From: Mycobacteriales bacterium
GTDB lineage: Bacteria > Actinomycetota > Actinomycetes > Mycobacteriales > QHCD01
Direction of reading: 5' to 3'
DNA: 64,000 nt
Assembly (NCBI GenBank): GCA_040414495.1
Contig: JBEDUI010000081.1
Coordinates: forward strand, 528 to 64,527
Of the stretch, positions 23,927 through 27,099 are shown piece after piece. The notes below the pieces were generated by a model, which was not told the DNA's origin, ran no database searches, and saw nothing but the letters and a program-made list of their open reading frames with translations. How positions within the stretch are numbered: position 1 is the first letter of the stretch; each line of letters begins with the position of its first letter. The position numbers were made by a program, and so were the translations under genes.

Positions 23927-24004
23927 ACCACCAGATAGGCGGCCCAGGGCGTGTCTCTCGAATTCTCGGCCTGCTGCGACGCCCGAGATTTATGAGACGC
24001 GCCC

Positions 24005-24032
24005 AGGGCGTGTTGCTAAAGCAGCACGCCCT
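24005..24032. terminator. stem-loop overlapping the dnaB stop codon (member of the GGGCGTG-armed element family)
   Basis: AGGGCGTGTTGC-TAAA-GCAGCACGCCCT, a 12-bp stem including one G-T pair. It sits between the convergent VOC and dnaB genes. Confidence 0.55.
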
Positions 24033-25404
24033 AGTCCTGCTGCATATCGACGAACCGTTGGTAATGGCCCTGAAAGGCGACGGTGATCGTGCCGGTCGGG
24101 CCATTACGGTTCTTGGCCAGAATCAGGTCCGCCTCGCCGGCGCGGGGCGATTCGCGTTCGTACATGTCCTCGCGGTGCAGCAGGATGACCATGTCGGAGT
24201 CCTGCTCGATAGCTCCGGATTCACGCAGGTCCGAGAGCATCGGCTTTTTGTCGGTGCGCTGCTCTGGACCACGGTTCAACTGGCTGATCGCAATGACGGG
24301 GCAATCGAGTTCCTTGGCCAGCAGCTTCAGCGACCGGGAGAACTCGCTGACCTCCATCTGCCGTGATTCGACCCGCTTGCCGCTGGTCATCAGCTGCAGA
24401 TAGTCGATGACGATGAGCTTGAGGTTGTGCCGCTGTTTCAGGCGCCGCGATTTGGCCCGGATTTCCATCATGGTCAGGTTGGGCGAGTCGTCGATATACA
24501 GCGGCGCGTCGGCTACCTCGCCCATTCGCCGGGCCAGCCGGCCCCAGTCGTCGTCGCTCATATTGCCCGAACGCATGTGGTGCAGCGGAACCTTCGCCTC
24601 GGCCGAGAGCAGACGCATGGTGATCTCGGACTTGCTCATTTCCAGCGAGAAGATCACCGATGCCTCGCCGCCGCGGATCGAGCACTGCCGGGCCAGATTC
24701 AGCCCGAGGATCGACTTTCCGACACCGGGCCGAGCGGCGATGGTGACCATCTGCGAGGGCTGCAAGCCGTTGGTGATTTGGTCCAGTTCGGAGAATCCGG
24801 TGGGTACGCCGAGGCTCACCCCGCCGCGGCTGGCGATGGCGTCGATCTCATCCATCGTCCCCTGCAGCAGCTGCTCGAGCCGGACGTAGTCCTCGCTGGT
24901 CCGCTGCTCGGTGATGTCGTAAACGGCGGCCTGGGCCCGGTCGACGACGTCGTCGATGTCGCCGGCATCGTTGGCCGCGCCGTACCCCAACTGCACGATC
25001 CGCGTCCCGGCCTCGATGAGCCGGCGCAACACGGCCCGTTCGGCCACGATCTGGGCGTAGTAGCCGGCGTTGGCCGCGGTCGGCACGGACGAGATCAGGG
25101 TGTGCAGGTACGGAGTGCCACCTATCCGGGTCAGCTGCCCGGAGCGGGTCAGCTCGGCCGAGACGGTGATCGGGTCGGCCGGCTCGCCCCGCCCGTACAG
25201 ATCGAGGATGGTGTCGTAGATCGACTGGTGCGCTGGGCGGTAGAAGTCGGTGCCATTGAGCACCTCGACCACGTCGGCGATGGCGTCCTTGGAGAGCAGC
25301 ATGCCGCCAAGCACCGACTGCTCGGCCTGCAGATCCTGCGGCGGCTGCCGGTCATACGCCGCTGGCGCTGGCCCGGCCACCTCGCGGTCATCGACAACCG
25401 CCAT
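24031..25404 (-). CDS. dnaB: replicative DNA helicase DnaB (no intein)
   Basis: N-terminal PPQDLQAEQSVLGGMLL. Walker A GARPGVGKS, Walker B LIVIDYLQLM, and the RecA-like C-terminal domain. Confidence 0.97.
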   Translation of the reverse strand: MAVVDDREVAGPAPAAYDRQPPQDLQAEQSVLGGMLLSKDAIADVVEVLNGTDFYRPAHQSIYDTILDLYGRGEPADPITVSAELTRSGQLTRIGGTPYLHTLISSVPTAANAGYYAQIVAERAVLRRLIEAGTRIVQLGYGAANDAGDIDDVVDRAQAAVYDITEQRTSEDYVRLEQLLQGTMDEIDAIASRGGVSLGVPTGFSELDQITNGLQPSQMVTIAARPGVGKSILGLNLARQCSIRGGEASVIFSLEMSKSEITMRLLSAEAKVPLHHMRSGNMSDDDWGRLARRMGEVADAPLYIDDSPNLTMMEIRAKSRRLKQRHNLKLIVIDYLQLMTSGKRVESRQMEVSEFSRSLKLLAKELDCPVIAISQLNRGPEQRTDKKPMLSDLRESGAIEQDSDMVILLHREDMYERESPRAGEADLILAKNRNGPTGTITVAFQGHYQRFVDMQQD

Positions 25405-25458
25405 CAGCGTCTCCCCCCTCCGGCCTGTCTGCTCGCGCCGACAGCCAACCCCGCGGCA

Positions 25459-26130
25459 ATATCCACAGCCCTGTCCACCGGGCCACTACCGATCGGCCGA
25501 ATCAACGACGGCTTGTGGACAACCGGCTCGACGAATGCACCGATACCACCCTTGCCGATCACGTCCGCGCCGTCGCGCGGCGCGCCGGGCCCGTTGTCCG
25601 ATGTTGCGAACAGCACGCCCCGGCCACCTGCTTTCACAGCGGAGTCCAGGCCGGCCTTTCGGCCCGCCGCCATCGTCACGCCCGGCTTGTCCGTCGACCG
25701 TCGCCCCATGCCCGCCTTGCGCCCCCTGCATCGTCGGATCCGAGCCGGTTAACCGACCCGGATCCGATCCCGCCGCCATGTCGGACCGCCCCGGTCCGTC
25801 CGTCCATCTGTCGACATCTGTCTACATCGAGGGTCTGACATGGCTCGCCCCCAAAACCGCGTCGGAGACCGACTCAGAAACCGACTGGGTGAGGCTAGAG
25901 CCGGTTGCGCCGCCGACTCAATTCCGCCTGTGGGCGAAGCTGCGGACAGCCTGTGGAGGAAGCGGCGCGTCCCTGTGCGGAGAATGCGGACGGCCTGTGG
26001 ATTAGCTTGTGGGAAACGCTCACATAGGGGCGCTGACCTGCGGCTTCACGATCGACAGGCTGTGGACAAAAAATTCCTGGGCTCGATTTGTCATCGACTG
26101 ACGAGCCGCGGCGGTGACCGTTGTGGGCGA
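25459..26130. promoter_or_regulatory. cluster of DnaA-box-like 9-mers in the rplI-dnaB gap
   Basis: Perfect TGTGGACAA at 25514-25522 and 26061-26069. Also TGTGGATTA 25996-26004, TGTGGGAAA 26008-26016, TGTGGGCGA 25929-25937 and 26122-26130, and TGTGGAGGA 25952-25960. On the opposite strand, ATATCCACA 25459-25467 and CTGTCCACC 25471-25479. Confidence 0.6.
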
Positions 26131-26340
26131 ATTCGCCGGGCCGGCTTTCAGCCGTATTGAGCCTCTCTCGCGACCGCTGGTGGGCAAGGCCCACCAAAAG
26201 GCGACGTCAATCCGTAGCCAAGTGCGCTGCGCCAGCCTGGGGCTGGGGACTCGGCGGTTACCGAAAGTCATCGCGACCGCCGCGGCGCCAGATCGGTGCG
26301 CGCCAATGGCCGGAGCGGCCGGACCCGCTCAAGCAGATGG

Positions 26341-26379
26341 CCCGGGTACTCGCCGCCAGAACGACGGCGAGATCCCGGG
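26341..26379 (-). terminator. GC-rich stem-loop just downstream of rplI
   Basis: CCCGGG..CTCGCCG (26341-26355) pairs with CGGCGAG..CCCGGG (26365-26379), with a 2-nt internal mismatch and a 9-nt loop. There is no clear U-tract. Confidence 0.4.
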
Positions 26380-26401
26380 CCTGATCTTGCGGTGCGGTTG
26401 G

Positions 26402-26848
26402 CTATTCGCCGACGACGTTCAGCGAGACCGCGGCGACAACCTCAGGGTGGATCCGAACGCTGACCTTGTGCGTACCGGTGCTCTTGATGTGGCCCGGCAA
26501 CTCGATGCGACGACGGTCGACGTTCGGTCCGCCGGCCGCCTTCACTGCCGCGACCACGTCGGCCGCGGTGACCGAACCAAACAGGCGGCCGCCATCGCCG
26601 GCCTTGGCGCGCAGGGTCACCTTCAGCGACTCGAGCTGGCCCTTGATCTCGTTGGCGTGGCCCAGGTCGCGCACCTCGCGCACCTCGCGGGCTCGCTTGA
26701 TCTGGGCGATCTGCTTCTCGCCGCCACGCGTCCACGCGATCGCGTAGCCACGCGGGACGAGGTAATTGCGGCCGTAACCGTCCTTGACCTCGACCACGTC
26801 GCCGGGCGCGCCGACCCCGCTGACCTCCTGCGTGAGGATGAGCTTCAC
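26402..26848 (-). CDS. rplI: 50S ribosomal protein L9
   Basis: [36 protein letters not shown]..., 148 aa. Confidence 0.97.
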
Positions 26849-26862
26849 GATCGACTCCTTCC

Positions 26863-27099
26863 TCAGCGAGCGGTGCTGGTGTAGGGCAGCAACGCCATCT
26901 CACGGCTGTTCTTGATCGCCGTGGCGACGTCACGCTGGTGCTGGCTGCAATTGCCGGTCACCCGGCGGGCCCGGATCTTGCCGCGGTCGGAGATGTACTT
27001 CCGCAGCAGGGTGGTGTCCTTGAAGTCGATGTAGCGCACCTTGTCCTTACAGAAAACGCACACCTTCTTCTTGGGCTTGCGTATTGGTGCCTTGGACAT
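26863..27099 (-). CDS. rpsR: 30S ribosomal protein S18
   Basis: [60 protein letters not shown]. Confidence 0.97.

Follow-up and report, generated by a model that had tools for sequence, protein, structure and literature searches.

What is a dense cluster of DnaA boxes, the sites recognized by the replication initiator, doing in front of the gene for the replicative helicase? This question is raised by a 64,000-nucleotide stretch of DNA from a Mycobacteriales bacterium (assembly GCA_040414495.1, contig JBEDUI010000081.1, positions 528 to 64,527; hereafter the window), in which rpsF, ssb, rpsR, rplI, a gap of 997 bp (25405-26401) and dnaB follow one another, with all of the genes on the minus strand. 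An earlier reading of the DNA from its letters alone (the sequence-only reading) had noticed the cluster in the gap and offered three roles for it, namely titration of DnaA, control of dnaB, or an origin-like remnant. Of these, control of dnaB fits best, since the array abuts conserved -35 and -10 elements, stays with dnaB, and a DnaA mutant that binds more weakly under-expresses dnaB. From the anatomy of the sequence, its statistical excess of boxes, its conservation and its linkage to dnaB, all observed here, and from DnaA binding and an effect on dnaB expression that we carry over from a mycobacterial counterpart, we consider it likely that the core of the cluster (26069-25929, minus strand) is the DnaA-binding array of the dnaB promoter, through which DnaA would control dnaB, probably in a positive sense. 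Titration is possible as a second role beside regulation. An element of this kind has already been described experimentally in mycobacteria, and the array is a further example; what we add is a detailed view of its architecture, the phasing at 11 bp, its fixed junction with a promoter and its breadth across taxa.

The nine DnaA-box-like 9-mers listed by the sequence-only reading are all present. Its two perfect boxes, TTGTCCACA at 25514-25522 and 26061-26069, are the sole perfect copies in the 64 kb, and both lie on the minus strand, which is the sense strand of dnaB; dinucleotide shuffles of the window lead one to expect a mean of 0.23 copies. Across 200 such shuffles, the largest number of same-strand CCACA/TGTGG cores was 4 (mean maximum 2.9), against six within 202 bp (25929-26130) in the gap, which bears out the claim that six same-orientation cores in about 200 bp exceed chance. 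Similarly, nine same-strand matches with at most two mismatches fall within 300 bp, against a shuffle maximum of 5. We also applied to the window the weight matrix published for M. tuberculosis DnaA boxes; the earlier reading had proposed a weight-matrix scan of the whole genome. The gap makes up 1.6% of the window, yet it holds 4 of the 13 hits in the top 0.01% and 13 of the 128 in the top 0.1%; the best 200-bp stretch of the whole window is 25926-26125 (79 times the median of an occupancy proxy), and the second is 25451-25650. In having several high-scoring matches to the actinobacterial DnaA box between rplI and dnaB, the locus agrees with the Rv0057/dnaB-rplI type.

The core begins with the upstream perfect box (box 1, 26069-26061) and the T-tract before it, which together occupy 26061-26076 and read AATTTTTTGTCCACAGCCTGTCGAT on the sense strand. 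The TCCACA-CCTGT core of this box is invariant in a five-way alignment and is kept in L086, the closest relative and the one contig that shares the long gap. An A-tract had been described as following the second perfect box; it is present, although it is better read as a conserved T-rich or pyrimidine tract preceding the first sense box, and the pyrimidine tract plus TCCACAGG recurs in distant loci. Next comes a conserved spacer element, CGCAGGTCAG (26033-26042, minus strand), which is nearly invariant in the clade of the window, occurs also in L001, L058 and the Blastococcus locus L085, and is not enriched over all 84 loci. It separates box 1 from a head-to-tail array of seven DnaA-box-like 9-mers (25929-26016), all on the sense strand and all with cores that are invariant in the five-way alignment: TTTCCCACA (26016-26008), TAATCCACA (26004-25996), CCGTCCGCA (25993-25985), CTCCGCACA (25982-25974), TCCTCCACA (25960-25952), CTGTCCGCA (25949-25941) and TCGCCCACA (25937-25929). 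Their start-to-start spacing is 12, 11, 11, 22, 11 and 12 bp, and the uniform orientation and 11-12 bp spacing place the boxes on one face of the helix. This head-to-tail order on one strand differs from the core of a DnaA-reactivating sequence (DARS), in which three boxes are arranged with adjacent ones opposite. The six-box cluster of the sequence-only reading is therefore there as listed, but its outermost member (26122-26130) is not conserved in relatives, and three degenerate boxes inside the array (25941-25949, 25974-25982 and 25985-25993), additional to the nine, had been overlooked. Its remark on a lower content of guanine plus cytosine (GC) holds for the array (0.631) and not for the gap as a whole, which at 0.673 equals the window (0.677).

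Immediately downstream lies a predicted dnaB promoter, P1 (25892-25921, minus strand), made up of a -35 element TTGAGT (25921-25916), an 18-nt spacer and a -10 element TAGCCT (25897-25892). The -35 element starts 7 nt after the last array box. Both TTGAG and TAG..T, with a spacer of 17-18 nt, are conserved in the five-way alignment and found again in L086, and this conservation points to promoter function for P1. In addition, the -10-like TA[GA][CG]GT occurs far more often before dnaB than chance would give (57 times, with 4 expected), and the distance from box to -10 peaks at 30-32 nt. A further motif that resembles a promoter, in this case one of the RecA-independent DNA-damage type (RecA-NDp/PafBC), is found at 25819-25840 on the same strand and reads TGTCAGAC, 8 nt, TAGACA. 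Its upstream half and its spacing match the RecA-NDp consensus, tTGTCRgtg-8nt-TannnT (PMC5656591), and the final T of the -10 is missing.

Conservation in close relatives, which were located through DnaB (homologues of the window DnaB share 71-95% identity with it), is concentrated on exactly these elements. Among relatives with 86-95% DnaB identity, the sole alignable non-coding block is 26073-25916, and the invariant columns of the five-way alignment consist of the box cores together with CGCAGGTCAG, the -35 and the -10. Compared with L086, the array and promoter are 90.5% identical without gaps and the damage-type promoter, which is conserved in L081-L084 as well, is 100% identical, whereas identity is 61% upstream of the array and about 78% in the leader that precedes dnaB. 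In two relatives the array remains beside dnaB although other genes follow rplI or rplI is absent.

The same arrangement extends well beyond these relatives. We sampled 80 genomes with a DnaB 71-78% identical to that of the window, drawn from Mycobacterium, Mycolicibacterium, Nocardia, Rhodococcus, Tsukamurella, Pseudonocardiales, Frankiales-type metagenome genomes, Nanopelagicales and Microlunatus (the loci do not include M. tuberculosis or M. smegmatis); the window DnaB is at most 78% identical to that of any reference species, and the rplI-dnaB gap in the sample is usually 400-700 bp. The kilobase before dnaB contains boxes with at most one mismatch at a density of 2.1 per kb, nearly all of them sense, versus 0.20 per kb elsewhere. 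Core density upstream of dnaB is 11.9 per kb on the sense strand and 2.9 on the antisense strand against a background of 1.45, TCCACA is found 224 times versus 6.6 expected, and TCCACAGG occurs as ATCCACAG 83 times versus 0.7 expected. Over the 80 loci, successive sense cores are most often 11 bp apart (81 pairs), followed by 12 bp (33 pairs) and then 22-23 and 32-33 bp. A DNA profile built from the clade of the window (nhmmer) gave matches almost confined to positions -100 to -380 of dnaB, and did so for about 70 of the 80 loci; conservation of the cluster in related genera was a check that the sequence-only reading had proposed. This profile of the array matches once in the window, and its Mycobacterium matches include L052 (E = 1.4e-5). 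Blastococcus has the same order of elements. GCAGGTC/GACCTGC was not enriched as a pan-actinobacterial motif (11 observed versus 10 expected). The design of anchor box, 11-bp phased array, promoter and DNA-damage promoter is conserved over several actinobacterial orders and is not a mycobacterial oddity.

Experimental evidence for DnaA binding comes from mycobacteria. When M. tuberculosis DNA was pulled down with purified DnaA, strong enrichment was seen for five regions, including Rv0057 upstream of dnaB, and sequencing of immunoprecipitated chromatin (ChIP-seq) from M. smegmatis recovered the homologous five regions (Hicks et al. 2020, PMC7738170). The enrichment of DnaA in M. smegmatis was 225-fold at dnaB-rplI versus 44-fold at oriC, and the enriched intervals of M. 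tuberculosis lie 195-220 nt before dnaB (PMC7738170). In support of a regulatory role, the DnaA substitution I282T lowered enrichment of the sites about threefold and was accompanied by decreased dnaB expression in M. tuberculosis (log2 -0.70, adjusted P 1e-46; PMC7738170). The mycobacterial dnaB-rplI site resembles that of the window in its position between rplI and dnaB, its motif and its placement on the dnaB sense strand; it is found by the profile made from the window array, and strand and phasing are common to both. The two differ in that the mycobacterial sites lie about 100-380 nt before dnaB whereas the window array lies 525-665 nt from the start codon, owing to a long leader, and in that slow-growing mycobacteria have 2-3 strict cores, such that the window array is the denser. 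The window itself stems from an uncultured organism that belongs to the Mycobacteriales broadly defined. The claim that the gap holds a secondary DnaA-box cluster outside oriC is supported by motif, statistics and conservation and by the binding of DnaA to this counterpart (PMC7738170), and the further claim that it lies away from dnaA-dnaN agrees with the finding that no frame of the window contains a dnaA-like open reading frame (ORF) or a DnaA signature.

From this we infer that DnaA binds the array in the organism of the window, that P1 is the promoter concerned and that the effect on dnaB is positive. In the mechanism that we propose, a strong anchor box, flanked by T-rich sequence and lying some five helical turns upstream, would be joined by seven weaker boxes on one helix face, along which DnaA molecules would sit side by side as a head-to-tail oligomer. 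Since the array ends 7 nt before the -35, the oligomer would touch RNA polymerase from upstream, and most likely it would stimulate dnaB transcription; the supply of helicase would then follow the level of active initiator. The second promoter, of the DNA-damage type, would come 50-60 nt further down, and the upstream operon would be closed by a strong hairpin. Such an arrangement would wire the initiator to the supply of the helicase that the initiator must load. A parallel exists outside the Actinomycetes: DnaA reportedly binds upstream of dnaB in Caulobacter crescentus (Hottes et al. 2005). The DnaA regulon of that organism is alike in that the initiator acts on the gene for the replicative helicase as its transcription factor. 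It differs in coming from an unrelated phylum, with sites that have no sequence homology to those considered here. Hicks et al. have noted the Caulobacter parallel for the mycobacterial site (PMC7738170).

Several findings weigh against a promoter array that activates dnaB. The direction of regulation rests on one mutant of another genus, and placement upstream of a promoter is no proof of activation. A generic sigma-70 and terminator scan of the gap returned nothing, and the promoter was then taken from conservation. At about 410-480 nt, the distance that separates the promoters of the window from the start codon is far greater than in most relatives. Phylogenetic relatedness among the 80 loci means that the counts given above overstate the number of independent observations. 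Finally, the very strong occupancy of the M. smegmatis site also suits titration. This last point bears on the alternative that survives best, in which the array is mainly a sink that, like E. coli datA or the clusters of B. subtilis, holds or inactivates DnaA after initiation and sets the timing of replication, with any effect on dnaB being secondary. This would be compatible with control of dnaB, and as the principal function of the array we regard it as possible, albeit improbable. The E. coli datA locus is a non-origin DnaA-box cluster of high occupancy which, with integration host factor (IHF), promotes hydrolysis of DnaA-bound ATP and which is itself no promoter element; the window array is likewise a DnaA-box cluster outside oriC. 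A sink would be served by many phased sites, which are suited to the loading of oligomers, and it would agree with dnaB-rplI giving the strongest DnaA ChIP signal in M. smegmatis, above oriC (PMC7738170). In B. subtilis, intergenic box clusters outside oriC both regulate neighbouring genes and jointly restrain initiation (PMC2533591, PMC3245932); they lie beside different genes, none of which encodes the replicative helicase. The D78 box cluster of Streptomyces coelicolor (Smulczyk-Krawczyszyn et al. 2006), resembles the window array in being a secondary DnaA-box cluster of an actinobacterium, and PMC3479198 cites it as regulating replication negatively. A pure sink, however, needs neither a set distance to a promoter nor to travel with dnaB, and the locus has no known deletion phenotype. 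A bolder combination of the two functions, to which we give somewhat less credence still, is that the array upstream of dnaB is the main chromosomal reservoir of DnaA across Actinomycetes, occupied above oriC. It would both restrain re-initiation, as a datA analogue in bacteria without Hda or SeqA, and tie helicase synthesis to the level of the initiator, with the extra inverted boxes in the leader of the window acting as a DnaA-dependent brake or loop. With the array there is a defined sequence on which to ask if the strongest DnaA site of these genomes serves gene regulation, buffering of the initiator, or the two together.

Could the sites belong to another transcription factor altogether, such as a response regulator that binds direct repeats? 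The conserved motif is longer than the 9-mer, with TCCACAGG embedded in ATCCACAG, and further conserved elements lie nearby, including CGCAGGTCAG and, in other lineages, ACACGCC repeats. Nevertheless, the core of the motif is the DnaA-box consensus, perfect copies of TTGTCCACA and TTATCCACA are present, and purified DnaA alone enriches the mycobacterial counterpart in vitro (PMC7738170), all of which makes such a factor very unlikely.

That the cluster is left over from an earlier origin, or is itself a cryptic second origin, we find barely credible. Low-affinity arrays in E. coli oriC consist of 9-mers 2 bp apart in the same orientation. The window array is like them in its 11-bp start-to-start phasing, uniform orientation and stronger anchoring box; a dense and oriented cluster of this sort resembles the oligomerization region of an origin, and box 1 is adjoined by the 30-mer that is richest in AT within the gap (GC 0.40). 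Unlike those arrays, it is adjoined by a promoter and lacks an unwinding element and DnaA-trios. A simple scan of both strands of the gap for at least two repeats of TA[AG] found no DnaA-trios, the sole AT-rich stretch is a T-tract of 6-7 nt, which falls short of an unwinding element, the window contains neither dnaA nor dnaN, and there is no switch in GC skew at the locus. Moreover, the presence of the same array before dnaB in many orders argues for a maintained promoter element and against an origin remnant. Of the three roles offered at the outset, the origin is thus the one left without support.

The gap itself is non-coding, as the sequence-only reading had held when it saw no convincing ORF there. 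GC is similar at its three codon positions, in contrast to a third-position value of up to about 0.9 in the flanking genes, and the codon-usage scores of its ORFs are negative or near zero. Searches of eight flank and gap ORFs against Pfam matched dnaB and rplI only, an Rfam scan of 24900-26900 at E <= 1 gave no match, and tblastn of the gap ORFs against the 80 loci returned weak matches only, which were caused by the box array. One open frame, 25709-25407, called for closer attention as a candidate gene: it spans the three boxes near the dnaB start, ends in TGATG, overlapping the dnaB start, and its sole homologue in a search covering 1.8 billion representatives is in L086. It was rejected, given that the ratio of nonsynonymous to synonymous change (dN/dS) against L086 is 1.06 and that the differences are spread equally over the three codon positions (21/20/22). 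The idea that an unannotated gap gene, like the annotated Rv0057, gave rise to the boxes by chance or through its composition can draw on open frames of 83-106 codons and on the weakly positive codon score, 63% identity to L086 and three indels, all multiples of three, of frame 25709-25407, but with no codon-position GC bias, no Pfam match, that dN/dS value, conservation that peaks at the boxes with no 3-nt rhythm, and 16 mycobacterial gaps without a frame-consistent ORF, its probability is negligible.

These results carry a warning for annotation, as open frames drawn across the gap are probably not genes; this concerns calls of the Rv0057 type, over-extended dnaB calls and a 94-codon call in L086. 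The longest gap frame in the 16 mycobacterial loci (within L046-L078) shifts strand and frame between species. Given this lack of a frame-consistent ORF, the annotated Rv0057, which fills the rplI-dnaB gap of M. tuberculosis, is probably not a gene. Gene callers have also extended dnaB upstream by 14-80 codons in L081 (called start at 633), L082 (1847) and L085 (2501), and in the last of these, from Blastococcus, the called dnaB runs across the array itself.

The region between the promoters and the dnaB start is a long, fast-evolving leader (25405-25818, minus strand), about 300 nt longer than in most relatives, which cannot be aligned to L081-L084. Its RNA fold (z = -2.3) is not decisive, and further control within it is possible. 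The three boxes that the sequence-only reading had placed upstream of the dnaB start are present here (25459-25522) and are lineage-specific. The proximal perfect box TTGTCCACA (25514-25522, minus strand) lies 110-118 nt before the dnaB ATG and is specific to this genome, being deleted in L086 and absent in L081 and L082; by our own estimate from composition, about 500 nt would be expected to contain roughly 1e-3 perfect 9-mers by chance. Two antisense box-like 9-mers occupy 25459-25479 on the plus strand: ATATCCACA (25459-25467), which is in the top 0.01% by weight matrix and is retained in L086, and CTGTCCACC (25471-25479), which is disrupted in L086. These start-proximal boxes may add lineage-specific control. 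Two other candidates in the leader were set aside. A near-perfect 34-nt palindrome (25734-25767) has a 15-bp stem and folds at -32 kcal/mol (z = -5.1), but as a functional element it was dropped, since it is not conserved in L086 (z = 0.4). The extra 400 nt of leader were considered as a mobile or repeated element, and neither a second copy in the window nor a match in relatives was found.

The damage-type motif recurs widely: in the form TGTCRG, 10 nt, TA it precedes dnaB on the sense strand in 59 of the 84 loci (60 observed versus 0.8 expected), usually 55-125 nt from the dnaB start codon, against 415-436 nt in the window. Non-mycobacterial lineages have a TAGNAC-like -10, which departs from TannnT. 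LexA-type boxes (GAAY-N4-GTTC, for example TCGAACACAGGTTCGA in L001) precede dnaB in 30 of the 84 loci versus 3.5 expected, and sit between the promoters and dnaB in L001, L004, L046, L067 and 26 others. Damage induces dnaB, partly through PafBC, and a putative SOS box has been described in M. tuberculosis (PMC8151990); this fits both the second promoter motif and the LexA-like boxes. No LexA box is found in the window gap, which suggests that SOS control of dnaB was lost or never gained in this lineage. Around the damage-type motif of the window, a 10-bp tandem repeat, CATCTGTCGA (2.4 copies, 25805-25828), overlaps the -10 and is for the most part retained in L086. Both arms of a 13-nt inverted repeat, GCCATGTCGGACC / GGTCTGACATGGC (25775-25787 and 25832-25844), are conserved in L086, and through this repeat another TGTCGGAC motif comes to lie 44 nt from the first, on the opposite strand; its RNA fold is marginal (z = -2.0).

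In 71 of the 84 loci, the array is preceded by a direct repeat of ACACGCC (for example CAACACGCCCGG, about 15 nt, CGACACGCCG; 128 observed versus 2.8 expected), which lies about 20-100 nt upstream of it in L004, L007, L009, L026, L040, L046, L067 and others. This repeat is absent from the window gap, and the window differs from many relatives in lacking both it and the LexA box and in having extra boxes near the start codon. In relatives, genes have been inserted into the segment that separates rplI from the array. In L083 (394-1748) it holds a sigma factor of the extracytoplasmic function (ECF) type with a SnoaL domain and a SnoaL protein, and in L082 (3-1600) small ORFs have been inserted; in L084 (upstream of 3001), dnaB is away from rplI and is followed by an IS110 transposase.

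At the upstream end of the gap, rplI (26402-26848, minus strand; ribosomal protein L9, Pfam Ribosomal_L9_N and Ribosomal_L9_C) is the last gene of the rpsF-ssb-rpsR-rplI group. A strong stem-loop formed by inverted repeat I4 (26339-26381, minus strand) begins 21 nt after its stop codon and has an RNA fold of -42.4 kcal/mol (z = -6.8 versus shuffles). It is a probable terminator, which would end the ribosomal-protein operon. At the other end, dnaB (24031-25404, minus strand) encodes the replicative DNA helicase, with the Pfam domains DnaB and DnaB_C and without an intein. Several close DnaB homologues (P0040, P0043, P0046, P0047, P0051 and P0073; 611-785 amino acids) carry inteins with intein Pfam domains. 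Just after the dnaB stop codon, the window contains two copies of AACACGCCCTGGGC 59 nt apart (24001-24013 and 23942-23954, minus strand), the first of which forms part of a small hairpin.

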